A stretch of 24,000 nt of DNA from Pseudomaricurvus alcaniphilus (GCF_011440395.1 NZ_JAAOIX010000001.1:866680-890679), one strand, 5' to 3'. Counted from the stretch's first letter, positions 2,084 to 19,637 are shown. A program made the numbers and translations. The notes: a model not told the origin generated them from the letters alone.

Positions 2084-3412
2084 ATGCCGACGATAGCAAA
2101 TAGCATCAAATCAATCTTTTTTATTGCCGCCATTTCCTTTGCACTCTGCCAGCCTGCGTCGGCCAGGGAAAGTGGTGTGCTTAGCGCGGAAGAGTCAGAC
2201 CCGCGAACACTCGGCTGGATGCAAGGCTTTCCACCGCCGGCAGACAAATTAATTATGCAGCCACAGTCCAACTACTTCAGCTTTCCACGCATACGCTGGA
2301 CTGTGTGCCATATGCGTGAACTCTTCCCCACCCAACAAGTGAGCCGCGGACTCGGTGCACCCACACCATTCGCCTACGCAATCGATAATAAAATAGACTC
2401 GGTTACATTTACCCCTCTTGGTGACAATCAGACAATGACATGGGCTGAGTCGCTGTCGACAAATTACACCGACGGCATGTTGATTCTGCACCGAGGAAAA
2501 ATCGTCTACGAAACCTATTCGGGCTGCCTGCAAGAGACGGGCAAACACGCTTCGATGTCAATGACCAAGTCACTGACTGGCCTGCTGGCAGAGATACTGG
2601 TGGCTGAAGGACAACTTGATGACAATGCCAGGGTATCCGCAATAATTCCCGAGCTTGGCAACAGCGGCTTTGGCAGCGCGACGGTGCGCCAGGTTATGGA
2701 TATGACCACGGCGCTCAATTATAGCGAGAACTATTCAGACCCCAAGGCAGATATTTGGATCTATTCCGCCGCTGCGAGCCCCTTGCCAAAAGCCAAAGAT
2801 TATCAGGGCCCCGATGGTTACTTTGAATACCTCCAGACGGTGAAAAAAAAGGGCAGACATGGCAAGGCTTTTGGCTACCGGACCATTAACAGCGACGCTT
2901 TGGGCTGGATCATCTCACGCACCACCGGCAAGGAGATGACAGATCTGCTGGCGGAAAAAATCTGGATGAAAATGGGTGCTGAACAAGATGCCTATTTAAC
3001 CGTTGACGGCAAAGGAGTGCCGTTCGCAGGCGGCGGCCTTAGCGCCGGCTTGCGCGATCTGGGTCGCATCGGGCAGCTGATGTTGAATGGCGGCGTTCTC
3101 AATGGTCAGCGCCTGTTCCCGGAATCGGTCGTCGCCAACATTCAGCAAGGTGGCGACAAGCAAGCCTTCGCCAAGGCGGGCTATGAAACTCTGCCGGGAG
3201 GCAGTTATCGCAGCATGTGGTGGCTGTTGCACAACCAGCACCAAGCCTATGCCGCTCGAGGCGTTTATGGCCAAACCATTTATGTCGACCCGACCGCGGA
3301 AATGGTTATTGTGCGTTTTGCGTCTTTACCCGTGGCAACAAACTCCTATAACGACCCGACGTCACTGCCCGCATACCAGGCTGTTGCTGAATACCTGATG
3401 ACGAAACCCTAA
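2084..3412 (+). CDS. Secreted serine hydrolase of the beta-lactamase/transpeptidase fold (class C / NylB / family VIII esterase-like)
   Basis: GGAG lies 5 nt upstream of the ATG. The N-terminal signal peptide ends in ASA|RE. The SxxK nucleophile motif is in ASMSMTKSLTG. At 442 aa the length fits this fold. Confidence 0.85.
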   Translation: MPTIANSIKSIFFIAAISFALCQPASARESGVLSAEESDPRTLGWMQGFPPPADKLIMQPQSNYFSFPRIRWTVCHMRELFPTQQVSRGLGAPTPFAYAIDNKIDSVTFTPLGDNQTMTWAESLSTNYTDGMLILHRGKIVYETYSGCLQETGKHASMSMTKSLTGLLAEILVAEGQLDDNARVSAIIPELGNSGFGSATVRQVMDMTTALNYSENYSDPKADIWIYSAAASPLPKAKDYQGPDGYFEYLQTVKKKGRHGKAFGYRTINSDALGWIISRTTGKEMTDLLAEKIWMKMGAEQDAYLTVDGKGVPFAGGGLSAGLRDLGRIGQLMLNGGVLNGQRLFPESVVANIQQGGDKQAFAKAGYETLPGGSYRSMWWLLHNQHQAYAARGVYGQTIYVDPTAEMVIVRFASLPVATNSYNDPTSLPAYQAVAEYLMTKP

Positions 3413-4712: not shown

Positions 4713-5810
4713 TTAGCGCTGGTCGAAGTCGACGACCACCTCATCGGTTAACGGATGTGCCTGGCAAGACAGAATAAAGCCCTGCTCTATTTCATGGGGC
4801 TCCAGACCGTGGGTTATGTCCATATCCACCTTGCCCTTGATCAACTTGCATTTACAGGTGGAGCAAACACCCGCCTTGCAGGAGTATGGCAATTCCATAC
4901 CGTTGTGCATACCCGCATCGAGGATATTTTCACCTACGGTCGCCAGATCGAACATAATGGAACGTCCATCCGCCACCACGGTGACCTTGCTGGTCTTTTC
5001 CTCGCCAAACTCCTGGATACGCTGTTGGGCTTTCTCCATTCTCTTTTGCGAATCCTCCGAAGAGTTGGCAAACAATTCATAGTGGATCTGCGAATCGAGC
5101 AGGCCTTCGACCCTGAAACCTCGTGACACCTCCGACATCATCGCTTCCGGGCCACAGATAAAGGCTTCGTCGGTGCCCTTGATGTCGATCAGTCCGGCCT
5201 TGGCAAGCGCGTAACCCTTCTTGTTGTCAATGCGCCCATTTAATAGATCCGCGCCCTGATCCTCATAATTCATGATATTGATCCACTGGAAGCGACTAAT
5301 ATAGCGATTCTTGACGAAGCTCAACTCATCCTTAAACATCACCGAGTTCGACCGGCGGTTACCGTAGATGAGGGTTACCCGACTTTTTGGCTCCTCAGCC
5401 AGGACCGTCTTGATAATCGAGAGTATGGGGGTAATGCCACTGCCGACCGCCAAACACATGTAATTTTTCTGGTTATTCGAGTCTACCTGGGTGAAGAAGC
5501 TGCCCTGGGGAGGCATTACCATAACCGTGTCACCCTCCTTGAAATTGTCGTTGGCATAATTGGAGAACACGCCATTCTTGACCCGCTTGATACCGACCCG
5601 CAGGTGCCCGTCATTCACCCCGGAACAGATCGAGTAGGAGCGGCGTACATCTTCACCCTCGATATCGGCCTTGAGGGTCAGGAATTGACCTTGAGTAAAC
5701 CTGAATTTGTCCTGCAGTTCGTCTGGCACGGCAAAGGTAATACAAACCGCTGTATCGGTTTCCGGCTGCACATCCGCAATCCTGAGGTTGTAGAAGTTTG
5801 TATCGGACAT
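4713..5810 (-). CDS. paaE: Phenylacetyl-CoA 1,2-epoxidase reductase subunit PaaE
   Basis: It has the FNR-type RRSYSI (RxYS) FAD motif and the GSGITP NAD(P)H motif. The C-terminal plant-type 2Fe-2S motif is CKAGVCSTC...C. It directly follows paaD. Confidence 0.93.
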   Translation of the reverse strand: MSDTNFYNLRIADVQPETDTAVCITFAVPDELQDKFRFTQGQFLTLKADIEGEDVRRSYSICSGVNDGHLRVGIKRVKNGVFSNYANDNFKEGDTVMVMPPQGSFFTQVDSNNQKNYMCLAVGSGITPILSIIKTVLAEEPKSRVTLIYGNRRSNSVMFKDELSFVKNRYISRFQWINIMNYEDQGADLLNGRIDNKKGYALAKAGLIDIKGTDEAFICGPEAMMSEVSRGFRVEGLLDSQIHYELFANSSEDSQKRMEKAQQRIQEFGEEKTSKVTVVADGRSIMFDLATVGENILDAGMHNGMELPYSCKAGVCSTCKCKLIKGKVDMDITHGLEPHEIEQGFILSCQAHPLTDEVVVDFDQR

Positions 5811-5818
5811 CGTTACAC

Positions 5819-6394
5819 CTATATTGTTTTAAAATAATCGAAGGGCTCACCACAGTCGCTGCATTGAAACAGCGCCTTACAGGCCGTAGAGCCAAATTCA
5901 CTGACTCGCACCGTATTTTCAGAGCCACATTGGGGGCAAGGCACATGTTGCTCAGGCGTCGCCCCTGTCTCAGTATCTTGCGGTGGAGCGATACCATAAT
6001 TACGCAGTTTTTTCCTGCCCTCCGATGACATCCACTCGGTAGTCCAGGCCGGAGCCAGTTGGGCCTTGATTTCGTGATCGGTCAGGCCGCCTGCATTCAA
6101 CGCCACTTCGATATCGCTGCGAATGGTGTCCATCGCGGGGCAACCCGAGTAGGTGGGTGTGATTGTGACAATGACCTTACCCGCTATTACCTCAACATCT
6201 CGCAACACACCGAGATCCCATATCGATAGTGCCGGAATCTCAGGGTCCTTGACCTGGTCGAGCAGGTCCCAAATCTCCGCACAACTGGAGTTTTGCCGAT
6301 ACTGTTCGCGCTCATACTGTTCCTGGGATATCAGTGGAATAAGGTTCATAGTTTTACTATCTGTACCCTCAGGGTTACCTTTCTGTGCGTTCAA
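5819..6394 (-). CDS. paaD: Phenylacetate-CoA oxygenase subunit PaaD
   Basis: It carries a DUF59-like block (DPEIPALSIWDLGVLRDV) and a C-terminal Cys pair motif CPQCGS...CSDCGEPFDYFK. The TTG start at 6394 is supported by a strong GGAGGT 8 nt upstream. An alternative ATG lies at 6349. Confidence 0.88.
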   Translation of the reverse strand: MNAQKGNPEGTDSKTMNLIPLISQEQYEREQYRQNSSCAEIWDLLDQVKDPEIPALSIWDLGVLRDVEVIAGKVIVTITPTYSGCPAMDTIRSDIEVALNAGGLTDHEIKAQLAPAWTTEWMSSEGRKKLRNYGIAPPQDTETGATPEQHVPCPQCGSENTVRVSEFGSTACKALFQCSDCGEPFDYFKTI

Positions 6395-6439
6395 AACTGC
6401 GTACCTCCAGGCTTTTCATTTACCCAGGCTCAGGGCGGT

Positions 6440-7210
6440 TTACCACTGACAGCCCGGGTAGGCTCTGTAGACCGACTGCATATCGGTCAACAAGTGACCC
6501 AGGTTTTCGGTATGGTAGCCGACACGCCCACCGCGCACAGCCCAATCGCCGGCCGGAATTTCCAGAGTAGCCTCACTGAGAATGGCCTTAATTTCAACTT
6601 CCCACTGTGCCTTGAGGCGGGTGGTGTCAACCGCGATGCCCGCATCCACAAGTTGCTGTTCCAGCTCATCCAGCTCGAACATCTCGAAGGTATACCCCCA
6701 GAGGGCGTCGACCGCGGTTTGCGCACGTTGATGGCTCTCCTCCGTGCCGTCACCCAGGCGCAGCACCCATTCCCGGCTGCGGCGCAAGTGATACCGGGTT
6801 TCCTTGCTCGCCTTGGCAGCGATCGCGGCCAGGGTTGCATCCTTGGATTTAACCAACTCGGCAAGAAAGCCTGTATTGAATGCGTCCACCAGCAACTGCC
6901 GCACCTGGGTGTAGGCAAAATCGCCTTTGGGCAGCTCATTGATCAGCAGATTTTTATATTCACGGGCATCGCGCATATAGGCGAAGTCGTCTTCCGTCCT
7001 GCCGTCACCGGCGAGTTCCGCGGCATAGCCGTAGAACATTCGGGCGCGGCCGATATAGTCCAGCGCCACATTGCCTAACGCAATATCCTCCTCCAAAAAG
7101 GGGCCGTTGCTTACCCACTCCGAAATTCTGTGCCCCAGCACGACCGAGTCGTCGCCGAGGCGCAGCGCGTATTCCAGCGTCGCCTGTTTTAAATCTGTAG
7201 CACTCATCAT
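6440..7210 (-). CDS. paaC: Phenylacetyl-CoA 1,2-epoxidase subunit PaaC
   Basis: It sits between paaB and paaD. It is a 256 aa ferritin-like helical protein with a GGAGA RBS. The order paaABCDE is conserved. Confidence 0.9.
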   Translation of the reverse strand: MMSATDLKQATLEYALRLGDDSVVLGHRISEWVSNGPFLEEDIALGNVALDYIGRARMFYGYAAELAGDGRTEDDFAYMRDAREYKNLLINELPKGDFAYTQVRQLLVDAFNTGFLAELVKSKDATLAAIAAKASKETRYHLRRSREWVLRLGDGTEESHQRAQTAVDALWGYTFEMFELDELEQQLVDAGIAVDTTRLKAQWEVEIKAILSEATLEIPAGDWAVRGGRVGYHTENLGHLLTDMQSVYRAYPGCQW

Positions 7211-7227
7211 TGATTCTCCGGGCTCGC

Positions 7228-7515
7228 TTACATGTTGTTAACAGGATCGGGAAGCTTGTAGTAAGTCGCGTGCCGATAGGGCTTATCATCCGAGGGGTCG
7301 TAAAAGCTCTCCGCATCGTCTTCCTGGGAAGCACAGATGTCGTCGGACTTCACCACCCAGATGCTCACACCCTCGCTGCGGCGCGTATAAACATCGCGCG
7401 CGTACTCCAGGGCTTGCTCGTGGTCTTCCGCGTGCAGGCTGCCCACATGCTTGTGATCCAGCCCGCGCTTGGAGCGGATAAAAACTTCAAATAATTCCAG
7501 GTTTTCGGGTTTCAT
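7228..7515 (-). CDS. paaB: Phenylacetyl-CoA 1,2-epoxidase subunit PaaB
   Basis: It is 95 aa with a GGAG RBS at 8 nt spacing. The conserved PaaB block is DVYTRRSEGVSIWVV. It lies immediately after paaA. Confidence 0.93.
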   Translation of the reverse strand: MKPENLELFEVFIRSKRGLDHKHVGSLHAEDHEQALEYARDVYTRRSEGVSIWVVKSDDICASQEDDAESFYDPSDDKPYRHATYYKLPDPVNNM

Positions 7516-7548
7516 AACGGGTACTCCGATATCTCGTTCAGCCTTGCC

Positions 7549-8514
7549 TTATGCAGCATGCCGGGATTTTTTGGCGCTCTTCTTCTCGTTATAAGCAGTT
7601 ATCGCATCGCGAACCCATGCGCCTTCCTCATGGGCCTTGACGTGGTGTTCGATCCGCTGACGATTGCAGTGACCGTTGCCATTGATCACATTGTAGAATT
7701 CATCCCAGTCAAGATCTCCGTGATCGTAATGACCACGCTCTTCGTTCCACTTGAGTTCCTTGTCCGGGTGTTCCAGCCCGAGGTACTCGATCTGGGGTAC
7801 GGTTTGGTCGATAAATTTCTGGCGCAGGTCATCATTGGTCTCGCGCTTGATTTTCCACTCCATCGATTTGGCGGAGTGTGCAGACTCGGAGTCGTGGGGG
7901 CCGAACATCATCAACGCGGGCCAGTAAAAACGGTTGAGCGAATCCTGCGCCATTTTTTTCTGCTCTGCACTGCCGTGGGCCAGCGCAATCATAAGCTCGT
8001 AACCCTGGCGCTGGTGGAAGCTCTCCTCCTTGCAGATACGGATCATGCCGCGGGCATAGGGGCCATAGGAGGTCCGCTGCAGAGAGACCTGATTAACAAT
8101 AGCGGCACCGTCGACCAGCCAGCCGATCGCACCGATATCACCCCAGGTCTGGGTGGGGTAGTTAAAGATGGATGCGTACTTGGCCGCGCCGGTTTGCAGC
8201 GCTTCGATCATCTCCGCCCGCGAAATACCCAGGGTCTCCGCCGAGCTGTACAAGTACAGACCATGACCGGCCTCGTCCTGCACCTTCGACAACAACACCG
8301 CCTTGCGGCGCAAAGAGGGTGCCCGAGTAATCCAGTTGCCCTCGGGCTGCATGCCGATGACTTCTGAATGGGCGTGCTGTTGTATTTGGCGGATCAGGTT
8401 CTTGCGGTAAGCGTCCGGCATCCAATCCTTGGGCTCGATCTTCTCTTCCGCCTCAATCTTGCGCATAAAGTTTTTTTCAGGATCCATACTCATGACCATT
8501 ATTCCCCGCTGCAT
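7549..8514 (-). CDS. paaA: Phenylacetyl-CoA 1,2-epoxidase catalytic subunit PaaA
   Basis: It is near-collinear with my recollection of E. coli PaaA ([33 protein letters not shown] di-iron ligand motifs). The true start is probably one of the internal ATGs at 8499, 8493 or 8487; GGGGAA lies 8 nt before the ATG at 8493. Confidence 0.95.
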
Positions 8515-8529
8515 CAGTTTACGTGGTCT

Positions 8530-8558
8530 ATATTATGATACACATATCTCTTTGTAAA
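8530..8558 (-). promoter_or_regulatory. Sigma70-type promoter of the paaABCDE operon
   Basis: The minus strand reads TTTACA-17 nt-TAATAT. This lies about 15-30 nt upstream of the candidate paaA start codons. Confidence 0.55.
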
Positions 8559-8577
8559 GCTTTATTATGTGTCATAA
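8533..8577. promoter_or_regulatory. Candidate operator: inverted repeat TTATGA(TA)CACATA - 19 nt - TATGTGTCATAA overlapping the paaA promoter
   Basis: The arms at 8533-8546 and 8566-8577 are complementary except for a 2-nt TA indel. The left arm fills the -35/-10 spacer and the -35 hexamer lies between the arms. Confidence 0.5.
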
Positions 8578-8797: not shown

Positions 8798-9367
8798 CTA
8801 GTGGAGCTGGTCGTTAATTGCATATATGACATGGATACTCAGGAGAAATACGGTAACCGGGACAAACTTGTTTAGTTGCCGAACAATGGCTGGCGGATTG
8901 CTTTTACTGTATTCACTGGAGGTGTGAAGCGCGGCAACAAATTTTGTCAGCCACAAGTAAATAACGGTGACTCCAAGTGAACCCAGCAGCCATGCGAGAA
9001 CAGTGCTTTTGGCCCAGTAGTCCTGCTGGAACACAAAAATCATTACCGCCATAGGTGGTTCAAGAAATAACAGCCCTCTGTCCAGGCCGGAAAGGAGCCC
9101 GGTATCGTTTGGATCCGGTTTCAGGAAGAGGTAGCCGCTACCGAGATAGATCCAGAAAACCGAGAATATGGCCAGAATACAGGCTGAGACAGTATGACCG
9201 GCCTGGATGGCCAATATTAAACATACACAATGGGGGAGCGCGCCACAAAGCAGAAGGAGCAGCCCGCCGAATTTTGGTGGCAGCATTTTCATGGATAGCC
9301 CGATAAAAATACCACAGACCAGATAGATGCTGGTTAGCGCCAAAAGAATAACGTTAAAATCATGCAT
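8798..9367 (-). CDS. Hypothetical integral membrane protein with about 6 predicted TM helices
   Basis: The 189 aa ORF has six hydrophobic stretches of about 20 residues. It lies between the PaaI-like gene and the paaA promoter. I recognise no family motif, and its GC content looks lower than its neighbours. Confidence 0.6.
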   Translation of the reverse strand: MHDFNVILLALTSIYLVCGIFIGLSMKMLPPKFGGLLLLLCGALPHCVCLILAIQAGHTVSACILAIFSVFWIYLGSGYLFLKPDPNDTGLLSGLDRGLLFLEPPMAVMIFVFQQDYWAKSTVLAWLLGSLGVTVIYLWLTKFVAALHTSSEYSKSNPPAIVRQLNKFVPVTVFLLSIHVIYAINDQLH

Positions 9368-9396: not shown

Positions 9397-9849
9397 TTAT
9401 TTATTCATGGGTATGATGACATTGGTCGCGCTGGCCGATGCTATGTGTTTGCCCGCCTCGTCATGCAGGTCCGCATGGGAAAACGAAATGGTGCGCCCCT
9501 TGCGAATAACCCTGGCTGTGCCGACATAGACTCCCGCCGGTGCCGGACGCAGGAATTCGACATTAAGATTCGTGGTGCCAATGGAGTAGCCTTCATCCAG
9601 GTCGGCAAGCAGTAAGACGGCCATGGTGAAATCCAGCATGCCCGCAACGATACCGCCTTGAACTACCCCGCCGCCGTGGAGAAAACGTTCATCGGTGACA
9701 AAGGACAGACGCGCTTCCATCGCATCCATATCCAGCGCATCGATGGTCGAGGTGAGTAATTCGGCGATGGGCGACGCCCGAAATTCCACCGGAAACACCT
9801 GCTCATCAACAACTTTGCGTAACTCGCGTTGAAATAAATCGTATGCCAT
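9397..9849 (-). CDS. paaI: PaaI-family hotdog-fold acyl-CoA thioesterase
   Basis: GGAGG lies 6 nt upstream of the ATG. The motif HGGGVVQGGIVAGMLD is typical of the PaaI/TIGR00369 thioesterase family. The 150 aa length and the paa context fit. Confidence 0.8.
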   Translation of the reverse strand: MAYDLFQRELRKVVDEQVFPVEFRASPIAELLTSTIDALDMDAMEARLSFVTDERFLHGGGVVQGGIVAGMLDFTMAVLLLADLDEGYSIGTTNLNVEFLRPAPAGVYVGTARVIRKGRTISFSHADLHDEAGKHIASASATNVIIPMNK

Positions 9850-10004: not shown

Positions 10005-10076
10005 CACGGTTACCCTGTATGTCACGGTCACCTTGTATGTCACGGTTACCTTGTACACCACGGTTATCTTGCGTAG
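10005..10076. repeat. Four contiguous copies of an 18-bp tandem repeat (CACGGTTACCTTGTATGT consensus)
   Basis: The units are 10005-10022, 10023-10040, 10041-10058 and 10059-10076, degenerating toward the last. Each contains a GGTNACC palindrome. The last unit covers the acylase stop codon and its final 3 full codons, plus part of a fourth. Confidence 0.9.
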
Positions 10077-12580
10077 CGTAAAGTGACAGCAGCTTCCGTC
10101 ATCTGCTCGACCTGAGCACGGCTAAAGGGCAATGGCTTGTGTTCAAAGCGCTGATAGAGCTCCATCTGATCGGCGTAGTGCGGGCTTCTGGAGCCGTCGG
10201 GTGCAATAAACCCGCTCTGTCCCGGAGGAGCCACATCGGAACCCTCGATGTGCGAGCCGCGGGCGATAAAGAGATTGTTTTCCGTACCCCGATTCATCAC
10301 CACCGGTAACGACATTTCGTTGTCTACCGTGGTCTGGCGCACCCCACGAAAGTTGTTAACACCAAAAACAAGCGGATGCGGCTTGACCCGCCAGGCCGCT
10401 ATATCCGTGCCGTGCTCAGTTTGCAGTTGCGCCAGCGCAGCAGTGAAGGTTTCAACCAATAGCTGGGCCGGGTCCTGGCCGTTAAAGAAATCGAAGCCGC
10501 TGATCTCCCCGTTCCGGTGTTGATCCAGGATGCGCACTAAAGCCTTGGTTCCCGGCGATGCGCCCACCGCTCCGGTGATCCTGCCGGTGGGATAGCCCGG
10601 CGAGGCGAAACGGAAAAAGAACTTATCGCCGATATCGTCGGCAAATACTCGGGCTAGCAACCGCTTGAGCCAGGCCTCCATGATCGCCGGCCCGGCGCTG
10701 TCGAAGTAGCCATCGGCGTCCTTATCCCACCAGTATTTGTCCCAGCCCTGCAGTTCAGCCAACCCGGCGCTGGTGAGCGCAGACTGCTTTGCCCCGGCCA
10801 GGGCGTCAGTCAAGTAGGGCAACAAATAGGCGACATTGACATCGGCATAGGAGGTGCGGCTGTTGATGTCCCATACCTGCTCAGCTGTCAGGCTTTGTCG
10901 GGCTACCAGCTCGTCGATGATGGTATCGGCGCGATCCACCCTGCCCCAGTTTTTCCACCACATATCGATAGCGCGCCAACCCCGCGCCGGCCGATTATTC
11001 CAGTTCTGGATATAACCCTGCTCGGGGTTGTAGACGTAGGGATTGCTTTCGAAGGGCAGCCAGCCCTGCCAGTCCATGGAGCCATCGCCCTTGGCCGGGA
11101 ACCGACTGTCGTGCTGGGCGTGGCGCAGCGGATACTTGCCGCCGTGGGTGTAGCCAATATTGCCCTCGCTATCGATATAGTAAAAGTTGATATTGATGGC
11201 AATACGCGCAACATAGTTACGCCACTGGGAGAAGTTTTTCGCCTTCGGCATGTCCACCCACGCCATCATGGTCTCCAGTTCGTGGTCTTCCCAGGCGCGC
11301 TTCTTGCTAAAGGCAACGCCCTTGGCACTGTCGTGCAGAATCACCGGCCCATGCACACTGCGATAAAACGTGACACTGGTGGGCTGCTGCCCTTTGACCG
11401 GAATTTGTTCGTCACGCCGCTCAAAAAACCGATAGCTGCCCTGGTACAGGTATTGATCTGGGTTTTCAGGATTCAGTTGCAGCTCGAAGATATCGACCTG
11501 GTCGCCATATCCCGCGGTGCTGCCCCAGCCGATAGAGTTATTGTGCGCAAACAACACCGCGGGATAGGCCAACATGGTGTTACCCACCACGTCCCAGTCT
11601 GCACCGTGCAGGCCGACGCCGTACACATAGGAAGGGTTGATCCAGCCAAACTGCGGGCCGTTTACCAGCACCGCCTTGGCATCCCGGGCCTTGTGCTTAT
11701 TCACCAGCCACACATTGCTGGTGGTGGGAAATCCGGCCGTGCCGGAATTACCCGATAGCGCATAGTGCTTGTTCAGATAGGCACTCCGCTCTTCGTCACT
11801 CGCGATAGCCAGGTGTCCGCCACTGGCATCCATGGCAAGCCGTACCGGCGGGTTAATGTCCCGGTCGGTTAGATAGGAGGGTGGATTGGTGGGGTTTTGC
11901 CTGTTGCCAGATTGCAAGCTGCTGTCATCGGGCACCGTAGTCGGTGAGTCGCTATCGTAGAGCGGCTGCACCGTATTGACGATCTTCCAGGCTTCGTCGT
12001 CGGTATAACGGGTGCGGAGATTCTGGTAGAAGGCCAGGTTATTGAGCTCCTCATTGAAATCCGCATAGCGGTGGGCCATGCTGCCCGCAAAGATCATTGC
12101 CACTTCATAGGCGGTGAGCCTGGAAGGCATGAATCCGTAATCCAGGAATTCTTTCGGCATCAGCTTCTCGGGACGCTTGTTCACTTCCGCCAGCCAGCTG
12201 TTATAACCTGCAGCGTAACCCTCCAGCACATCGCGATGCTCCTCACTGAGCGCCGCCATCTGCCGACGAATGGAATCAGGATCAAAGCCCTGGCGCACCT
12301 GCTTATCGACCTCGACAAAGTCTGCGCCCAATACCTCGGCCGCTGTACCCGTCACCGTCCGTTTGGTCATTTCCATCTGGAACAAGCGGTCCTGCGCCAC
12401 AGCGTAGCCGTAGCCGTAAAACACGCCAAAATTATCTTCGGCATAGATATGGGGTACGCCGTAACTGTCACGCTTGATGGTCACTTCCCCTGCACCTTTG
12501 CCGGGTAGTGAATTTACAGTGCAACCGGCCAGAATGAGGCACATTAAGCTGGCAACCAGCCACCGGGATCGTGCATGCAT
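10064..12580 (-). CDS. pac: Penicillin G acylase-type Ntn-hydrolase (penicillin amidase family), predicted lipoprotein
   Basis: AAGGAG lies 8 nt upstream of the ATG. The lipobox is LILAG|C. The alpha chain block is DSYGVPHIYAEDNFGVFYGYGYAVAQDRLFQMEM. The beta chain begins SNVWLV (nucleophile Ser), followed by NGPQFGW and NWNN. It is collinear over its whole length with my recollection of E. coli PGA. Confidence 0.92.
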   Translation of the reverse strand: MHARSRWLVASLMCLILAGCTVNSLPGKGAGEVTIKRDSYGVPHIYAEDNFGVFYGYGYAVAQDRLFQMEMTKRTVTGTAAEVLGADFVEVDKQVRQGFDPDSIRRQMAALSEEHRDVLEGYAAGYNSWLAEVNKRPEKLMPKEFLDYGFMPSRLTAYEVAMIFAGSMAHRYADFNEELNNLAFYQNLRTRYTDDEAWKIVNTVQPLYDSDSPTTVPDDSSLQSGNRQNPTNPPSYLTDRDINPPVRLAMDASGGHLAIASDEERSAYLNKHYALSGNSGTAGFPTTSNVWLVNKHKARDAKAVLVNGPQFGWINPSYVYGVGLHGADWDVVGNTMLAYPAVLFAHNNSIGWGSTAGYGDQVDIFELQLNPENPDQYLYQGSYRFFERRDEQIPVKGQQPTSVTFYRSVHGPVILHDSAKGVAFSKKRAWEDHELETMMAWVDMPKAKNFSQWRNYVARIAININFYYIDSEGNIGYTHGGKYPLRHAQHDSRFPAKGDGSMDWQGWLPFESNPYVYNPEQGYIQNWNNRPARGWRAIDMWWKNWGRVDRADTIIDELVARQSLTAEQVWDINSRTSYADVNVAYLLPYLTDALAGAKQSALTSAGLAELQGWDKYWWDKDADGYFDSAGPAIMEAWLKRLLARVFADDIGDKFFFRFASPGYPTGRITGAVGASPGTKALVRILDQHRNGEISGFDFFNGQDPAQLLVETFTAALAQLQTEHGTDIAAWRVKPHPLVFGVNNFRGVRQTTVDNEMSLPVVMNRGTENNLFIARGSHIEGSDVAPPGQSGFIAPDGSRSPHYADQMELYQRFEHKPLPFSRAQVEQMTEAAVTLRYAR

Positions 12581-12607
12581 GATCGGTACTCCTTACGTTA
12601 GGCACGG

Positions 12608-12635
12608 AAAAAAAGGGTGCATGTAAAATGCACCC
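12608..12635 (-). terminator. Rho-independent terminator between the TonB-dependent receptor gene and the acylase gene
   Basis: The minus strand reads GGGTGCAT-TTTAC-ATGCACCC followed by TTTTTTT. It lies 27 nt after the receptor stop and 27 nt before the acylase ATG. Confidence 0.8.
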
Positions 12636-12662
12636 ATCGAGCTTATCCGTTCAGTTGAACAG

Positions 12663-14885
12663 CTAGTAGTTCTGCCAGGTTACTGACACACCGTAGGTGG
12701 CAGGCGCGCCCCATACACCAACAGCGGAGCCGGCGAAGTTATAGGCATGGGAGATGTATTCCTCGTCGGACAGGTTTTTGCCCCACAATGCTACCAGCCA
12801 TTTCTCATCGCTGGACTGCCAGGCGATCCGCCCGTTCCAGAGCCCAAACTCCTCTATTACAACGTCCTCGTTGAGATAGTCACCAACCTGTTCATCGCTG
12901 TAGGCGTAGTCGAGACGGAATTTCAAGTTGCCCGATTCGATCGGATACTCGTAATTCACAGTAGCGGTAAAGGTATTCTCAGGCGCCTGGCGCAGCGCAC
13001 CACCTGATGCGTCGACGTTGCCAAGGTTGAAATCCTTGGTTTCCGTATCGAGGTAGGCGTAGTTACCGGACAGCTGCAGGTTGTCAGTGACCGCCCAAAT
13101 CGCCTCCATTTCCAGCCCTTTGATCTCCGCTTCACCCAGATTGACTGTGGTGAAGAATTCGTTGGGGTTACCCGACCCCGGAATAACACCAAAGCGAACC
13201 GCCTGCAGGTCCGTATAGTCCATGTAGTAAGCGGTGAGGTTAAGCCGCACGGTATGGTCAAAGAAGTCGCCTTTCATACCGACTTCGTAGTTGATCACCT
13301 CTTCCGGATCAACCGCTGCATGGGCTAATTTAATCGGGGGGATATTGGGAAAGCCGCCGCTCTTGAAGCCCTTGGCGATGCTGCCGAAGATCATCACATC
13401 ATCAGTGACTCGGTAATCCACGGCAACCTTGGGCGATACATCCTCCCAGCTTTCATCGGCTGTGCTGAAAAAGCTCTCTGCCATAAAGAAGGTTCCGGCC
13501 GAGACGCCATTACAAATGGCCATACTTTGCGCGGCGACGAACGGATCCGTGATTGTCGCCGGATCGTCTGCACAGCGGATATTCAATGCAGTCACATCCT
13601 TTTTATCACGGGTAAAGCGCAAGCCCAAATGCAGCGACAGCTCGTTGGTCAGGGCCCAACTGGCCTGTCCATAGGCGGCAAAGCTCTCTGTTTCGTTGGT
13701 TGCGAAGTGCGTAGATCGCGCAGTTTCGAGCAGCGGTGGGCCGGCAGAGAAAACCCGAAAGGATTCCGAGCGGTCGGTCTCTTCCTGCAGATAATAGAGG
13801 CCCGCGACGAAGTTAAAATCCCCATCGAGCTGTGACGTCCAGCGCAGCTCCTGGCTTAACTGGTCAGTCTGTTCCTGAATATCATCGAGCAGATCGGCAT
13901 CCGCGCCAAACACACCCGCGATTCCCGATGAGGCCATCTGCCAGTCAGTTTCCGACTCGCGCCAGGCGGTAATGGAAGTCAGGGTGCCGCTGCCCAAATC
14001 GAAATTGACACTCAGGTTGGCGCCCTGGGCGTCTCTTTTGGACCCGCCTTCGATCGGGGTGGCTACCTTGTGAGGATTGGCTCGTCCGGAGCCTTGCGCT
14101 TCGGCCAGCGCATTCAGGGGGCCGGCGAAGGGTGTACGCCCCATATCCTCAGATTCCTCGTCCATGAAATCTGCGGAGAATATTACCTCAGTGTTGTTGG
14201 ATGCATGCCAGAGCAGCTGAACACGCCCCGAATCCTTATTCGCATCAGCCTGGTCCTTGTTCAGCGCCACGTTTCGTACATAGCCATCGTGCTCATTGTG
14301 GCTAAAGGAGACTTTGCCCAGCAGGTTTTCCGCCAAGGCGCCACTCACCAGCCCCTCGTACTTCATGTGACCCTCATTTCCAACCGAAACCGTACCCTTA
14401 ACGGTCAGGTCTTCGGTGGGCTTGGAGGTAACAATGTTGATCGCACCACCGATGGCATTGCGGCCAAACAGGGTTCCCTGGGGGCCTCGCAGTATCTCAA
14501 TGCGCTCCAGGTCGTAAAGATCAAAGTTAATATTGGAGGGGCGGCCAATGTACACCCCGTCCAGAAAAGCCGTCACGGAGTTATCCATTCCCGGCCCGTC
14601 GTCCGCCGATGTAATTCCCCGCAGTGATATCAGCGCCTGTCCCGGCGCGAACTCAGCGTAGGACATGCCAGGCGCATACAGCGCTACTTCTGTTGCGCCG
14701 CGAATATCGGCCTCTTCCATCATTTCGCCCGCCATAGCTGTTACTGAAACCGGGACGTCCTGTAGATTCTCTTCACGGTGCTGTGCGGTTACTATTATTT
14801 CCTCAATGGCCGCCATGGTGGGCGCGGCAATTGTCGCTGCTGCAATCCCGGAGATAGCCAGATTCAGAATCGATCGCTTGAGCAT
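12663..14885 (-). CDS. TonB-dependent outer-membrane receptor
   Basis: The signal peptide is MLKRSILNLAISGIAAATIAAPTMA. The plug-domain start is EEIIVTAQHREENLQDVPVSVTA. It has a beta-barrel-type sequence with a C-terminal aromatic residue (..TWQNY). I moved the start to the ATG at 14885, which has GGAG 6 nt upstream; the ORF track begins at the TTG at 14897. Confidence 0.92.
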   Translation of the reverse strand: MLKRSILNLAISGIAAATIAAPTMAAIEEIIVTAQHREENLQDVPVSVTAMAGEMMEEADIRGATEVALYAPGMSYAEFAPGQALISLRGITSADDGPGMDNSVTAFLDGVYIGRPSNINFDLYDLERIEILRGPQGTLFGRNAIGGAINIVTSKPTEDLTVKGTVSVGNEGHMKYEGLVSGALAENLLGKVSFSHNEHDGYVRNVALNKDQADANKDSGRVQLLWHASNNTEVIFSADFMDEESEDMGRTPFAGPLNALAEAQGSGRANPHKVATPIEGGSKRDAQGANLSVNFDLGSGTLTSITAWRESETDWQMASSGIAGVFGADADLLDDIQEQTDQLSQELRWTSQLDGDFNFVAGLYYLQEETDRSESFRVFSAGPPLLETARSTHFATNETESFAAYGQASWALTNELSLHLGLRFTRDKKDVTALNIRCADDPATITDPFVAAQSMAICNGVSAGTFFMAESFFSTADESWEDVSPKVAVDYRVTDDVMIFGSIAKGFKSGGFPNIPPIKLAHAAVDPEEVINYEVGMKGDFFDHTVRLNLTAYYMDYTDLQAVRFGVIPGSGNPNEFFTTVNLGEAEIKGLEMEAIWAVTDNLQLSGNYAYLDTETKDFNLGNVDASGGALRQAPENTFTATVNYEYPIESGNLKFRLDYAYSDEQVGDYLNEDVVIEEFGLWNGRIAWQSSDEKWLVALWGKNLSDEEYISHAYNFAGSAVGVWGAPATYGVSVTWQNY

Positions 14886-14941
14886 GTTGGTCTCCAATTT
14901 ATTTTATTAGTCTTAGCTGCCAAACAGTTTTGTCAGAACGT

Positions 14942-14975
14942 GACACAATTAATTAAGTGCACACCATTATTGTGT
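14942..14975. promoter_or_regulatory. Candidate operator upstream of the TonB-dependent receptor gene: GTGACACAAT - N19 - ATTGTGTAACAC
   Basis: It has the same ACACA-N23-TGTGT geometry as the sites upstream of paaA and paaF. Its near edge lies 57 nt upstream of the receptor ATG at 14885, in an AT-rich leader. Confidence 0.45.
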
Positions 14976-15216
14976 AACACTTTTTAAGAGATGTCCAACC
15001 TATTCTATCGGGCGCCTGTCCGCAACCTGCCCATGCTTGTTTTAAGGTCATTGCTGTGCAGACAGGAACCCATAGATTTCAAGAACTTACTGAATTGAGG
15101 GAGGCGGAACCGGCACCTGTGGGGGATAAAAAAATGAGATTCTTTACGGCGCCTATCTGAAAATTATTCTTAAAATTATAGTTGTAACTTGATACCAGGC
15201 TGAACAGCCTGGCGCG

Positions 15217-15286
15217 CATTCAAAGGTATGCACTTAAAGGTTAGGAATCAAACGTGAGGAATCAAAGGTTAGCACTCAAAGTGCCA
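15217..15286. repeat. Five contiguous degenerate copies of a 14-bp tandem repeat (consensus about GAATCAAAGGTTAG)
   Basis: The units are cattcaaaggtatg, cacttaaaggttag, gaatcaaacgtgag, gaatcaaaggttag and cactcaaagtgcca. They match the consensus at 9-12 of 14 positions. The period is not a multiple of 3, and the array lies in a 625-bp non-coding spacer. Confidence 0.75.
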
Positions 15287-15509
15287 CTCGATCGAGTCGC
15301 AGAGTTCACTATCCGCTTCCTTGATGTGGCGCACTATGGCAGCTGATAAATGAATCAACTCCAATGGCTCGGCAGCACGGAAAGCCCACCAGTAGCGGCA
15401 CAATCCGTGCCTTGACTTTATTTTCCAGGCGTCATGTCATGTTGATGCCCGCGACGCCGCGCCGTGTTCAAACACGGCAGAAACGGTTGTTTCGACAAGC
15501 CTCTACGGG

Positions 15510-17057
15510 TCAAGCCCCATCGATAAACCTGCCACCGCCATAAACCTTACGTTGCAATAACGGCGAGACGCGGTAACGATCTTCACCATAGGTGTACAAC
15601 AGGTTCTTTAAAACCTGTTCTATATAAACAAGACCAATATGATCAGCCCAGGCCAAAGGCCCCTGGGGGTAGTTCACCCCATCGCGCATGGCCGTATCCA
15701 CCGCCTCGGCATTGCACACTTGCTGGTTGACCGCATCTGCCCCTTCATTCGCCAGCGCGCACAATGTCCGCATTACGACCATACCGGGTATATCGTCAAT
15801 CACCGAGACCTGCTTGCCGATGGCCTTGAACAAGCCAATCGCCTTATCCAGTGACGCAGCGTCAGCCTGGTCAGAAGCACAGATCGCAATTCGTTGCGCA
15901 TTGCTATAATCCAGCGCCAGGTCAAACAGAACTACATTGGGGTTGTCACTCTGGGCACTGACTTGAGTCGCCGTTCGACCGTCCGTTAGTCGCACCATCA
16001 CACCTTCTATTTCGATACAGCTATCACCTGAGGTCGGTTTGGCGTCTATCTCAATACCGGCATTGGCAAACTGGTTACGCAGGGGCTCGCAAACACCCAA
16101 CTCACCGTAAATGCTGATACGGCCAGGCTTGAACCCTGAATCTGCATTCGAGGGGACTGCAGCAACGGCTTGCTCGCTATAGTCATAGAAACCACGGCCA
16201 CTTTTGCGCCCCAGAAACCCGGCATTTACGTACTCCAGTTGCACCACTGCAGGCTTGAAGCGGGGATCCTGGTAAAAAGCGTTAAACACCGACTCGGACA
16301 CGGCATAATTGACGTCGTTGCCAATAAGATCCATCAGTTCGAAGGGGCCCATGCGAAAACCACCACTCTCCCTGGCAATGGCATCTATGGTGGGGATATC
16401 CGCTCCGCCCTCCTGAAACACTCGCATGGCTTCCGTATAAAATGGCCGCGCGACGCGGTTGACGATAAAGCCGGGTGTCGATTTTGCGTGCACGGGATTC
16501 TTGCCCCAGGCCAACGCTGTTTCGTAAACGCATGCAGCAATCTTCGGGTCAGTGGCAACGCCGCTGATGACCTCGACCAGCTTCATAACCGGTGCCGGAT
16601 TAAAAAAATGCATGCCCACCAAATTCCACGGCCGCTTCAAGCCGGCACCAATCGCTGTTACCGATATAGAAGAGGTATTGGTAGCCAGTATCACATCGTC
16701 ACTACAGATGTCTTCCAGCCCCGCAAAGACCTTTTGCTTGATCTCAAGGCTTTCCACAATGGCTTCGATAATAAAGGACGCGTCAGCCAACGCTTCCATA
16801 GCTTCATGAGGCTCGATCCGAGCGACCAGTGCGGCGGCCTCAGCGTCACTCATCTTGCCCCGCGCCACCTGTCGCGCCAGCCCCGTGCGAATATTGTCGA
16901 TGCCACTGGTCGCAGCACCTGGCGCGGTGTCGAATAACTTCACTCTGTGACCGGCCGCGGCAGCGACCTGGGCAATACCTGCACCCATGGTGCCAGCACC
17001 AATGACGCCGATTATTTTGTCTGCTGTTAAGCTAACCATGTTATTCACAACCCTCAT
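15510..17057 (-). CDS. paaH: 3-hydroxyadipyl-CoA (3-hydroxyacyl-CoA) dehydrogenase PaaH, long form
   Basis: The N-terminal Rossmann motif is IGVIGAGTMGAGIAQ. It has the 3-hydroxyacyl-CoA dehydrogenase NAD-binding and C-terminal domains plus a duplicated C-terminal domain, as in E. coli PaaH. It follows paaF. An alternative start lies at the ATG at 17039. Confidence 0.88.
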   Translation of the reverse strand: MRVVNNMVSLTADKIIGVIGAGTMGAGIAQVAAAAGHRVKLFDTAPGAATSGIDNIRTGLARQVARGKMSDAEAAALVARIEPHEAMEALADASFIIEAIVESLEIKQKVFAGLEDICSDDVILATNTSSISVTAIGAGLKRPWNLVGMHFFNPAPVMKLVEVISGVATDPKIAACVYETALAWGKNPVHAKSTPGFIVNRVARPFYTEAMRVFQEGGADIPTIDAIARESGGFRMGPFELMDLIGNDVNYAVSESVFNAFYQDPRFKPAVVQLEYVNAGFLGRKSGRGFYDYSEQAVAAVPSNADSGFKPGRISIYGELGVCEPLRNQFANAGIEIDAKPTSGDSCIEIEGVMVRLTDGRTATQVSAQSDNPNVVLFDLALDYSNAQRIAICASDQADAASLDKAIGLFKAIGKQVSVIDDIPGMVVMRTLCALANEGADAVNQQVCNAEAVDTAMRDGVNYPQGPLAWADHIGLVYIEQVLKNLLYTYGEDRYRVSPLLQRKVYGGGRFIDGA

Positions 17058-17164: not shown

Positions 17165-17944
17165 CTATGCGCCCTTGAAATTCGGTTTTCTCTTTTCCAG
17201 AAAAGCGTTAATGCCTTCGTTTCTGTCCTCGGTACCGGCCAGCATGACAAACGCCTTGCGCTCATATTTTAGCCCTGCTTCCAGTGACGTCTCGAACGCA
17301 TTGAGGAGCACATCCTTGGCCTGTTCTACGGCAATTGGCGGCTTTGCGGCAATCTTGCCGGCGATTTCAAGAGCGCGTTCGATACTGGCCTCGGGTAGGG
17401 TTACGTCTGAAACAAGGCCCGCCGCCAGGGCTTCTGCGGCGGATATAAACTCTCCCGCCAGCACCATTTTCATGGCCAGTGATTTCCCCACTGCGCGAAT
17501 CAACCGCTGGGTACCGCCTGCGCCAGGGATAATGCCCATATTTATTTCCGGCTGGCCAAATTTTGCGGTCTCGCCGGCGACAACGATATCGGCGTGCATA
17601 ACCAGTTCACAGCCGGCCCCGAGCGCATAGCCATTGACCGCCGCGATAAGCGGCTTTCGGAAATCACTGATTCGCTGCCACAGCTGCGGGCGCGGCTCAT
17701 ACAGAATGCCCAACATATCCGCTTCACTCATCGCCTTTAAGTCGGCCCCGGCGGCAAAAACCTCGGCACCACCGGTGATCACTACGGCGCGGACATCCTT
17801 ACGGGCCCCGAAATCCTCGAGCACAGACACCAGCTCTTCCAGGACGGCGGTCGACAGGGCATTTAACACTTTCGGGCGGTTGATCGTGATCAACGCGACA
17901 CCACTGGCGGGATGATCCAGCAATAGATATTTGAGGTTATTCAT
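17165..17944 (-). CDS. paaF: 2,3-dehydroadipyl-CoA hydratase (enoyl-CoA hydratase) PaaF
   Basis: From MNNLKYLLLD onward it is collinear with my recollection of E. coli PaaF (FAAGADL, AAVNGYALGAGCEL, PEINMGIIPGAGGTQRLIRAVGKSLA, TEDRNEGINAFLEKRKPNFKG). The 57-codon extension in the ORF track (to 18115) is AT-rich promoter DNA. Confidence 0.9.
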   Translation of the reverse strand: MNNLKYLLLDHPASGVALITINRPKVLNALSTAVLEELVSVLEDFGARKDVRAVVITGGAEVFAAGADLKAMSEADMLGILYEPRPQLWQRISDFRKPLIAAVNGYALGAGCELVMHADIVVAGETAKFGQPEINMGIIPGAGGTQRLIRAVGKSLAMKMVLAGEFISAAEALAAGLVSDVTLPEASIERALEIAGKIAAKPPIAVEQAKDVLLNAFETSLEAGLKYERKAFVMLAGTEDRNEGINAFLEKRKPNFKGA

Positions 17945-17992: not shown

Positions 17993-18029
17993 GATACACA
18001 TTTCTACATATATAGATAATGTATGTATC
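17993..18029. promoter_or_regulatory. Candidate operator upstream of paaF: GATACACAT - N21 - ATGTATC (extended right arm ATGTATGTATCAT)
   Basis: It has the same 9-mer GATACACAT and the same spacing as the paaA site. It starts 49 nt upstream of the paaF ATG. Confidence 0.45.
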
Positions 18030-18371
18030 ATTATTTTGGCTGTCAGCTTACACCATGATTCAAAAGTTATTATCAGGAGTGACGTTATAGCCAAGTGCAA
18101 TATTGACTTTGTCATGCCCGGCCTCGCTGGTTGGCATCAGCTCCGTGGTGATGGATGGCGCCGACATCGACCTGCCACCGGCACCGGCACCATTTCAAAA
18201 TGGATTTCGTACGGCCTGCAGTGAGGACTGAAAATACAAACTAATCACTCGTGGATATGCTATCTGCCTGTTTAATCTTTCTGCTTGTTCGTGCCTGGCG
18301 AATGCCCACCTTGCGCAACTGCCAATCCAAATATTTAATAATTAAAACCCCTCTATATGCAGCACAATAGC

Positions 18372-18395
18372 AACCAATTCCAATTTGTATTGGTT
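18372..18395. promoter_or_regulatory. Inverted repeat AACCAAT-N10-ATTGGTT upstream of the RND adaptor gene; possible repressor operator
   Basis: The arms are a perfect 7-bp match, lying 34-57 nt upstream of the adaptor ATG at 18429. Confidence 0.3.
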
Positions 18396-18428
18396 ATACT
18401 AACCCCCTTCACGACGCTGGATATTCCC

Positions 18429-19637
18429 ATGAAATATTTTAACCTCGTACTGTGCCTGGGCGCTGTGGCAATTTTCTCCGGCTGTAGCGACGCAACGCCG
18501 CCACAATCCGCTGCGGATATCGCCCCACCCGCGGTTATGGTTGTCGAAGTCCAGCGGCGTGACATCAATGAGGTCGCGGAAGATGTTGCTCGCACTGAGG
18601 CGACAGCCCGCGTCGAGATTCGCGCCCAGGTTACCGGTATTCTCAAGTCCCGGGCGTTCGCCGAGGGATCATTTGTCAATCAGGGTGACCTGCTCCTTGA
18701 AATCGACCCGGCCCAGTTCGAGGCTGACCTGGCTGTGGCCGCCGCCGCGGTTGCCCACGCCAAAGCTGCGCAGAAAAAAGCCGACTTGTACCTCGCCCGA
18801 CTTAAAGGCATGCGCGCGGGTGCTGTCGCTGCCGTCGACCTCGACGCCGCCATCAGCGAAGCCGCGGTTGCTGAGGCAAACTTGCAACAGATGGAGGCAC
18901 AGTGGAAGCTGGCCAAGCTTGACCTGGATCACACCCGTATCACCGCTCCCATCAGTGGTCGTATCGGCGCCAGCACCATCGATGTGGGCAACCTGGTTAG
19001 CGCCAACGGCGACAGCCTGGCGACCATTGTGCAGTCAAACCCCATTGAAGTGTCCTGGTCAATCAGCGAACGATTATTGACCAACTTTAAAGCGGAGATG
19101 CTCTCCATAAATGAGGAACCGGTGATCGTTGACAAGGTCATTCCCCGGCTGCGCCTTTCCAATGGCGAGGAATATACGCACACGGGCGAAATATTTTTTG
19201 TCGATAACGAAGTCAACCCGAGAACCGGGACGGTTACCATTCGCGCCCGCTTTGCCAATGGGGAAGGCCTGCTGATCCCGGGGCAATTTGTCACCGCGCT
19301 GCTGCAGTTGCGCCGCAGCCAGAGTCGACTGTTGATTCCCCAGGCTGCAGTCCAGCAGGACATGCAGGGCTACTTTGTGCTGGTGGTAACAGCGGATAAT
19401 CGGGTGGAGCAGCGCCACGTTGAACTGGGCAACAGGTTTGGCACGGAGTGGATCGTCAACCAGGGCCTGGAGAGCGGAGAATGGATTGTCTATCAGGGGC
19501 TGGAGAAGGTCAGGCCGGGCATAACCGTTAACCCCGCCAGAAATACCTCAGCCCTGGGGAAGCCAGCGACAATGATCAGCGATGCCATCCCTGCCGCAGA
19601 GAGTGATAACAAACAGCCCGGTGGGAGCCAGCCATGA
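18429..19637 (+). CDS. RND efflux periplasmic adaptor (membrane fusion protein, HlyD/AcrA family), lipoprotein
   Basis: I moved the start to the ATG at 18429, giving [18 protein letters not shown]|C (a lipobox). It has coiled-coil-rich barrel-sandwich hybrid features. Its stop overlaps the pump start (ATGA). Confidence 0.88.

Follow-up and report, generated by a model that had tools for sequence, protein, structure and literature searches.

A 24,000-nucleotide stretch of the Pseudomaricurvus alcaniphilus genome (GCF_011440395.1 NZ_JAAOIX010000001.1:866680-890679; hereafter the window) carries, on its minus strand and between genes of phenylacetate (PAA) catabolism (paa), a TonB-dependent receptor (TBDR; 12663-14885, 740 aa) followed after 82 bp by an acylase of the penicillin G acylase (PGA) family (10064-12580, 838 aa). 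We consider it probable that the pair serves a route in which arylacetyl amides are imported with TonB-derived energy, deacylated in the periplasm, taken up as free acids, activated with CoA and degraded by the Paa enzymes under a PaaX-type switch. The initial annotation of this DNA had proposed a dedicated module of this kind, and the proposal is supported by conserved synteny, recurrent paa neighbors, operator sites and a lipobox in the acylase.

The acylase and its receptor

The acylase matches PF01804 across the whole model (463 bits, model positions 1-675 of 675). Its best solved relatives are PGAs (425-637 bits, with 7reo at 637), and the E. coli enzyme (1e3a/1gk9) is matched at ~437 bits for the beta chain and ~218 bits for the alpha chain; cephalosporin acylases score ~100 bits (up to 106) and PvdQ 50-82 bits. 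These matches place the protein firmly in the penicillin G acylase branch of the N-terminal nucleophile (Ntn) hydrolases (peptidase S45, PF01804) and identify it, as initially annotated, as a full-length PGA homolog. Identity to enterobacterial PGA is 40-41% overall; the N-terminal block of the alpha chain, which had been called nearly identical, is 58% identical.

Over its first 240 residues, the beta chain aligns without gaps to that of E. coli/Kluyvera, so that residues can be numbered directly. The processing site reads TT/SNVW, with beta-Ser1 at S288, and the predicted chains are an alpha chain from about residue 21, a spacer peptide and a beta chain from Ser288. All catalytic and oxyanion equivalents are present: betaQ23 as Q310, betaA69 as A356, betaN241 as N528 (in NWNN) and betaR263 as R550. 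In classical PGAs, the phenylacetyl pocket is formed by alphaM142, alphaF146, betaF24, betaT32, betaF57, betaS67, betaW154 and betaI177 (PMC9340067). The window acylase keeps alphaM142 (M168), betaF24 (F311, in NGPQFGW), betaF57 (F344), betaS67 (S354), betaW154 (W441) and betaI177 (I464), has tyrosine at alphaF146 (Y172, in SMAHRY) and valine at betaT32, and carries R171 at alphaR145. Alignment to the E. coli chains thereby confirmed the earlier residue claims (SNVW, NWNN, alphaM142 and betaF24 retained, alphaF146 changed to tyrosine).

The N terminus, MHARSRWLVASLMCLILAG-C20-TVN, comprises a charged n-region (Arg4/Arg6), a hydrophobic core and the lipobox L-A-G-C with threonine at +2, a motif already read correctly in the initial annotation. 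It has the form of a lipoprotein signal, with a lipobox that fits [LVI][ASTVI][GAS]C and a cysteine within positions 15-35. The lipobox cysteine recurs in 21-24 of 28 scorable TBDR-linked acylases and appears to be a feature of their clade. An NCBI nr entry of 100% identity starts 12 residues later (826 aa); because that start leaves a leader of 7 residues, the 838-aa start is plausible and is needed for a signal peptide.

The receptor starts at an ATG in the public annotation (740 aa), and ORF calling extends it to a TTG at 14897. A predicted signal peptide is followed by a TonB-box-like EEIIVTA, a plug domain (PF07715, residues 45-152) and a barrel (PF00593, residues 282-709), and the protein ends in WQNY. 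By its plug, barrel, TonB box and C-terminal aromatic residue it is a TonB-dependent transporter (TBDT); the two domains bear out the outer-membrane active transporter that had been noted beside the acylase. The match to the siderophore-receptor model TIGR01783 (178.8 bits) lies below the cut-off of 223.5, no equivalog model is close to its own threshold, and similarity to FyuA is weak (104 bits).

Pairing, substrate-site divergence and candidate operators

We sampled PGA homologs at one genome per species, obtaining 80 loci with 10-kb flanks, and compared gene order by tblastn with the window proteins and by independent ORF clustering. In 29 of the 80 loci, the gene immediately upstream of the acylase gene and co-directional with it encodes an ortholog of the window TBDR (44-50% identity), the same arrangement as in the window. 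All 29 belong to marine Gammaproteobacteria (Halieaceae, Luminiphilus, Porticoccaceae, Cellvibrionaceae, Pseudoteredinibacter, Parahaliea, Arenicella and Thiotrichales metagenome-assembled genomes), and the three closest metagenomic homologs of the acylase (53-57% identity) carry the pair too. Adjacency in related genomes had been set beforehand as a test of the module; it is present in ~30 species-level genomes and three metagenomic contigs, and a chance arrangement is effectively excluded.

About 14 of the TBDR-linked loci have paa genes within 10 kb, and two gene orders recur: paaX / paaK-TBDR-acylase, and actP-TBDR-acylase with an actP product resembling a PAA permease. Recurrent neighbors are PaaK, PaaX and PaaI, which all exceed their NCBIfam equivalog cut-offs, as well as PaaZ, PaaJ, PaaY and an ActP/SSF symporter of the type that serves as PAA permease in Pseudomonas. 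They further include an exported amidase nearest to the indoleacetamide-hydrolase model NF005688 (495 bits, cut-off 532). This IaaH-like amidase adjoins the TBDR-acylase pair in 14 loci and is fused to the acylase C terminus in five. The fusion proteins (~1,325 aa; L044 2110-6081, L047 9932-13921, L055 9902-13876, L059 4930-8904 and L073 5441-9439) have the PGA-like part at the N terminus, and their beta chain would carry a second amidase after autoproteolysis. PF01425 and PF01804 are joined in two more database proteins (P0101, P0116).

The pairing was also approached from the receptor side, with four TBDR orthologs of 51-53% identity. Two of these precede a PGA-like acylase within paa clusters, one in Luminiphilus syltensis (paaK-TBDR-acylase-amidase-paaZ-ECH-PaaI-thiolase) and the other in the order paaX / paaK-TBDR-acylase-amidase. 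Since all four adjoin an amide hydrolase, the receptor family appears to be consistently coupled to such an enzyme, mostly a PGA-like one. Collimonas, Zoogloea and Paraburkholderia also have PGA genes beside paa genes, in their case with no TBDR. The window is therefore not alone in linking pac and paa physically; what distinguishes it is the TBDR.

Regulatory and transport genes vary among the paired loci. The order is extracytoplasmic function (ECF) sigma-FecR-TBDR-TBDR-acylase in L006, L055 and L062, and ECF sigma-FecR-TBDR-acylase, with a TBDR of 884-901 aa, in L090 and L091. The closest homologous locus (L089, 57% identity) has an AraC regulator before the pair and a POT/PTR2 di-/tripeptide transporter after it (6675-8237), and the latter raises the possibility of a short peptide as the amine leaving group.

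In a simple neighbor-joining tree, built without support values, the TBDR-linked acylases group as one clade, with the classical PGAs as its sister. Apparent departures from this grouping are limited to short or truncated contigs and a single fusion protein. The classical clade contains Enterobacterales, Achromobacter, Pandoraea, Thauera and Marinobacterium, none with the TBDR. Within the TBDR-linked clade, betaS1, Q23, N241 and R263 are invariant, betaA69 is found in 31 of 34 members, and the acyl-pocket residues betaF24, F57, S67, W154, I177 and P22 are kept. Only 13 alignment columns split the two clades at >=85% per side. Position alpha146 is tyrosine in 34/34 clade members versus phenylalanine in 40/40 classical PGAs, and beta32 is valine in 34/34 versus threonine in 37/40; the other splitting changes include alphaN144H, betaG58A (beside betaF57), betaP49L and betaF50L. 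In the E. coli enzyme, alphaF146 is in contact with the thiazolidine ring, and the substitution alphaF146Y raises the affinity for C-alpha-substituted phenylacetyl groups (PMC9340067). We infer that specificity for aromatic-acetyl groups is probably kept and that the preference for the alpha-substituent or the leaving group is altered. The altered substrate-site residues make penicillin G an unlikely natural substrate.

A broader reading, which we put forward tentatively and would rate at somewhat below an even chance, is that a two-gene core of TBDR and lipoprotein PGA-clade acylase, often with the IaaH-like amidase, is widespread in marine Gammaproteobacteria and dedicated to a class of natural arylacetyl amides, possibly C-alpha-substituted or linked to peptides or amino acids, with ECF-sigma/FecR surface sensing in some lineages. 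If true, it would reveal the long-debated role of the PGA family and a new, actively harvested pool of dissolved organic matter.

A shared regulatory element provides a further link to PAA catabolism. The E. coli PaaX operator, TGATTC(N27)GAATCA, also controls the pga promoter (PMC9493321). In seven related loci, an inverted repeat GATACA-N25-yGTATy is common to the region upstream of paaK, where it is found between paaX and paaK, and the resulting candidate operator, GATAC-N27-GTATC, equals the E. coli PaaX box in geometry. Across all loci, 27 of 60 matches with at most one mismatch fall within the 7.6% of sequence that lies upstream of module genes (p ~4e-15). Boxes in related loci precede TBDR genes (L035, L041, L052, L066), ECF-sigma genes (L055, L062) and paaA; in L055 and L062, where the box stands upstream of the sigma gene, two control layers may combine. 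Classical-clade PGA genes with no TBDR are also preceded by the box, in Marinobacterium (L017, L018, L021, L024 and L060, at ~80-130 bp) and Leclercia (L079, at 77 bp), which suggests that E. coli W is far from the only host in which PaaX controls PGA genes.

A position weight matrix (PWM) was built from 20 sites, all from other genomes. Its top-ranking match in the window is a perfect GATACA-N25-TGTATC palindrome at 17993-18029, 50-85 bp upstream of the paaF start (29.3 bits), followed by GACACA-N25-TGTATC at 8537-8573, the candidate for paaA (23.7 bits), and GTTACA-N25-TGTGTC at 14942-14978, 57-93 bp before the ATG of the TBDR (19.4 bits). The next independent match in the 24 kb scores 6.9 bits. 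The TBDR candidate overlaps promoter-like hexamers at 14997-14969. On this non-circular evidence, the TBDR unit appears to share a control element with the paa operons, and the phenylacetate-linked expression predicted in the initial annotation gains in silico support from the placement of the top three sites upstream of paaF, paaA and the TBDR. Three E. coli-type TGATTC half-sites (15245-15357) were also considered as an operator and dropped: they have no conserved counterpart upstream of the TBDR in relatives and are unpaired with GAATCA. Two of these clustered hexamers, which correspond to the E. coli PaaX half-site, lie in a 14-bp tandem array (15216-15281, 4.7 copies, minus-strand unit ~TAACCTTTGATTSC) situated 330-400 bp upstream of the TBDR. 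Conservation of the array does not extend to related loci; it may provide binding sites for a different regulator.

The 82-bp gap between the TBDR and acylase genes contains a GC-rich, terminator- or attenuator-like hairpin with a T-run (12615-12635, minus strand). Most related loci (L001, L005, L007, L041, L048, L052, L055, L066, L071 and L074) have a comparable hairpin directly after the stop codon of the TBDR gene, often with a T-run and with z-scores down to -7.9. This conservation suggests attenuation, by which the TBDR would be made in excess of the enzyme, or a conserved partial termination or mRNA stabilization between receptor and enzyme. A transcript spanning both genes would read through the hairpin.

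Proposed route and competing explanations

In the route that we propose, which would scavenge nutrients for the phenylacetate catabolon, the TBDR would bind an extracellular arylacetyl (phenylacetyl-type) amide conjugate and import it across the outer membrane. After export, the PGA-like enzyme would be given a lipid anchor at Cys20 that fixes it to the periplasmic face of a membrane, likely the outer membrane because the +2 residue is threonine. It would cleave itself between Thr287 and Ser288 into alpha and beta chains and hydrolyze the amide to an arylacetate and an amine moiety, and in relatives the IaaH-like amidase would also deacylate. The acid would then enter the cell, in relatives via the ActP/PaaL-like symporter, be activated by a PaaK encoded elsewhere in the genome, and be degraded by PaaABCDE, PaaF, PaaH and the remaining pathway steps. 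Expression of the TBDR, paaA and paaF units would respond to phenylacetyl-CoA through a PaaX-type repressor site upstream of each, in the manner of the pac promoter of E. coli W.

The proposed route has a close counterpart in pac/pga of E. coli W and Kluyvera: the S45 Ntn family, the processing site and the catalytic and oxyanion residues are the same, the acyl product is proposed to feed paa, and the half-site spacing of the candidate operator equals that of the PaaX box (PMC9493321). In contrast to those enzymes, the window acylase is ~40% identical, belongs to a separate clade, has a lipoprotein signal rather than a soluble periplasmic leader, carries alphaF146Y, alphaN144H and betaT32V, is paired with a TBDR and lies among paa genes.

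Several observations weigh against the route. Neither an inner-membrane PAA permease nor paaK and paaX are found in the window or in 10 kb on either side. For about half of the TBDR-acylase pairs, no paa gene lies within 10 kb, and the closest homologs are under AraC or ECF-sigma/FecR control, with no PaaX box and no paa genes nearby. Among the four TBDRs sampled in the reverse direction, one follows an amidase-signature amidase, and another comes after an M24 peptidase and before an SSF symporter; neither has an acylase adjacent to it. The link of the window to PaaX consists of the candidate operator, whose TBDR copy has two mismatches to the palindrome. Because a terminator-like hairpin separates the TBDR and acylase genes, their strict co-transcription is uncertain. 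Finally, the clade-defining changes (alphaN144H, alphaF146Y, betaT32V, betaG58A, betaP49L/F50L) fall at or beside the PGA substrate site; the acyl or leaving group may thus differ from plain phenylacetyl, and the substrate is not necessarily benzylpenicillin or a plain phenylacetyl amide.

Alternatively, the TBDR could import free phenylacetate or the reaction product, as an analog of the PhaK porin, with the acylase exposed at the surface or acting on conjugates that had entered through porins. Pseudomonas pha/paa clusters contain a PAA porin (PhaK/PaaM) and a permease (PhaJ/PaaL), and the position they occupy is matched in relatives of the window, where the TBDR directly follows an ActP/PaaL-like permease gene (L059, L073) or, elsewhere, paaK. 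Uptake genes within the paa cluster and an ActP/SSF permease in related loci are common to both systems. The hairpin between receptor and enzyme and the existence of TBDR orthologs with no acylase fit the import of a free acid as well, and TBDTs for free aromatic acids, such as DdvT, are known (PMC13149774). However, the TBDR-acylase pair is kept in ~15 loci that have no paa or permease gene, and where the acylase is absent another amide hydrolase adjoins the TBDR, which argues for an amide conjugate as the ligand. The ECF-sigma/FecR variants imply that a specific extracellular ligand is sensed, and PAA itself (136 Da) should need no TonB-powered transporter. An energized TBDR in place of an OprD-type porin also sets the window apart from the Pseudomonas clusters, and its coupling to an amide hydrolase implies uptake of a conjugate, not of the free acid. 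We regard the import of free PAA or of the product as unlikely.

We also give little credence to the possibility that the acylase cleaves some other N-acyl amide, be it an N-acyl homoserine lactone (AHL), an acylated siderophore imported by the TBDR or an N-acyl amino acid or peptide, in which case its position among paa genes would reflect general catabolic clustering. The fixed substrate-site changes of the clade would suit such a substrate, as would the POT peptide transporter that follows the acylase in L089. A siderophore would be in keeping with the weak resemblance of the TBDR to siderophore receptors (TIGR01783, 179 bits; FyuA, 104 bits), with the ECF-sigma/FecR genes of L006, L055, L062, L090 and L091, which are typical of iron-siderophore systems, and with the ability of Ntn acylases to mature or deacylate siderophores (bioRxiv 10.64898/2026.07.24.740629). 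PvdQ and the marinobactin acylases are likewise periplasmic Ntn acylases functionally tied to TBDR uptake systems (bioRxiv 10.64898/2026.07.24.740629), but they differ from the window acylase in their long aliphatic acyl pockets, their place in iron regulons and their lack of a paa link. Siderophore and AHL acylases belong to the PvdQ/cephalosporin-acylase branch, at 50-106 bits (50-82 bits for PvdQ) compared with 637 for PGA. The aromatic acyl pocket (betaF24, F57, W154, I177, S67) is invariant, paaK, paaX and paaZ are recurrently adjacent, PaaX-type boxes precede TBDR, amidase, ECF-sigma and acylase genes in several genomes, and no nonribosomal peptide synthetase or iron-uptake genes were seen in the loci examined.

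That the module is a catabolic or detoxification system for benzylpenicillin, comparable to put/paa of soil bacteria, is highly improbable: the acylase is a PGA homolog, a PF00144 beta-lactamase-family gene (2084-3412) lies 1.3 kb from paaE and penicillin catabolism through an amidase and paa is documented (Crofts et al. 2018, as summarized in PMC11446756), but this PF00144 gene is on the opposite strand in an SDR/TetR unit, matches no beta-lactamase equivalog and is absent from the 80 related loci, the host clade is marine and oligotrophic, and the thiazolidine-contacting alphaF146 (PMC9340067) is replaced in every clade member. The put and paa operons of Pseudomonas sp. ABC07, Burkholderia and Pandoraea do resemble the route we favor, in that an amidase frees phenylacetate for paa (Crofts et al. 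2018, as summarized in PMC11446756). They differ from it in combining a beta-lactamase with an importer of the major facilitator superfamily (MFS) and with two amidases (that summary mentions no TBDR), and in belonging to soil Beta- and Gammaproteobacteria with a known substrate (PMC11446756).

Other systems share parts of the proposed arylacetyl amide route. Carbohydrate-utilization (CUT) loci of Xanthomonas and Caulobacter and polysaccharide utilization loci (PULs) of Bacteroidetes combine a TBDR with a hydrolase that is periplasmic or a lipoprotein, a transporter of the inner membrane and a regulator, in some cases together with ECF-sigma/anti-sigma signaling at the surface; they target glycans by means of glycoside hydrolases, whereas an Ntn amide hydrolase and aromatic acyl-CoA catabolism are found here. 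In DdvT of Sphingobium sp. SYK-6 and TBDT-11 of Novosphingobium, a TBDR encoded with aromatic catabolism takes up a substrate (PMC13149774). Those transporters import the catabolic substrate itself, without a coupled periplasmic Ntn acylase. PaaX-controlled PGA, TBDT-mediated aromatic uptake, TBDR-hydrolase loci and penicillin catabolism from amidase to paa are each already known separately. A full-text literature search of incomplete coverage returned no description of a TBDR with a PGA-family enzyme or of this clade, which is absence of evidence only.

PGA is among the most heavily used industrial enzymes, and its natural substrate and role are described only as 'scavenging phenylacetylated compounds' (PMC9493321). 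The TBDR-linked clade gives a route to that substrate: it appears hard-wired to an energized importer, phenylacetate genes and a PaaX-type operator, and the ligand of the TBDR should be the natural substrate. Cultivable hosts are available in Pseudomaricurvus, Luminiphilus syltensis, Pseudoteredinibacter and Parahaliea. The changes alphaF146Y, alphaN144H and betaT32V are natural variants at positions that engineers mutate for PGA specificity. The proposed route would also add aromatic acyl amides to the glycans, metals and vitamins that TBDR nutrient loci are known to target.

The surrounding genes

From the ORF listing and profile searches, the minus-strand order is paaF, paaH, a spacer, TBDR, acylase, a hotdog thioesterase, a membrane protein and paaABCDE. 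All genes lie where the initial annotation had placed them; the spacer between the TBDR and paaH, which it gave as 625 bp, exists and measures 624 bp (14886-15509, non-coding). All seven paa genes (paaA-E, paaF and paaH) exceed curated NCBIfam equivalog cut-offs. paaF encodes a 2,3-dehydroadipyl-CoA hydratase (17165-17944, minus strand, 259 aa as annotated; NF007239, 373 bits, cut-off 371); a longer ORF of 316 aa would overrun the operator candidate at 17993-18029. paaH encodes a 3-hydroxyadipyl-CoA dehydrogenase (15510-17057, minus strand; TIGR02279, 690 bits, cut-off 669). The phenylacetyl-CoA 1,2-epoxidase genes paaABCDE occupy 4713-8514 on the same strand (paaA 7549-8514, paaB 7228-7515, paaC 6440-7210, paaD 5819-6394, paaE 4713-5810) and match TIGR02156, TIGR02157, TIGR02158, TIGR02159 and TIGR02160, all above cut-off.

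The pair is flanked by paa genes, as had been claimed, but the cluster around it is partial. It comprises paaABCDE, paaF and paaH, whereas a complete cluster has paaABCDE, paaFGHIJ, paaK and paaZ together. None of paaG, paaJ, paaK, paaZ, paaX and paaY, and no true paaI, was found in the window or in 10 kb on either side; the flanks were taken from contig JAAEZJ010000011.1 (GCA_018222935.1). A tblastn search of the spacer and window for remnants of paaK, paaX, amidase, actP, paaZ, paaJ and paaY gave a best E of ~0.02, and the sole better match was a weak alignment of PaaI to the thioesterase. A riboswitch or other known RNA in the 624-bp spacer was rejected: Rfam returned no known RNA at the gathering threshold in the whole window, and none at E<=1 for 14800-15600.

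Two genes lie between the acylase and paaA. The thioesterase (9397-9849, minus strand; PaaI/YbdB-type superfamily) matches the generic hotdog model TIGR00369 only (57 bits) and shares 35% identity over 68 aa with a true PaaI. It has no match to the PaaI equivalog TIGR02286, on which the PaaI proteins of related loci score 153 bits, and the earlier label 'paaI-like' does not hold in the sense of a PaaI ortholog. The orphan membrane protein (8798-9367, minus strand, 189 aa, ~6 transmembrane segments) matches no Pfam or NCBIfam family, in Pfam even at E<=10, and has six homologs only (78-100% identity) in 5.8 billion clusters, all in unrelated contexts. We considered it as a conserved, AceTr/SatP-like PAA channel and rejected it as a conserved component of the module on the basis of the missing Pfam support and these contexts.

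On the plus strand, the PF00144 gene (2084-3412) encodes a beta-lactamase-family serine hydrolase of 442 aa within a TetR/SDR/SDR unit. Its matches are weak (60 bits to a model for a cholic-acid-modifying enzyme, and PBP4B). It was rejected as part of a penicillin pathway, as it has no ortholog in the 80 related loci and no beta-lactamase equivalog match. The surroundings of the locus are rich in TBDRs, SDRs, acyl-CoA enzymes and Rieske oxygenases. Divergent from paaF, a resistance-nodulation-division (RND) efflux pair of adaptor and permease (18357-22798, plus strand) shares with it an intergenic region of 485 bp, and the strongest PaaX-type box (17993-18029) sits in this region, nearer to paaF.

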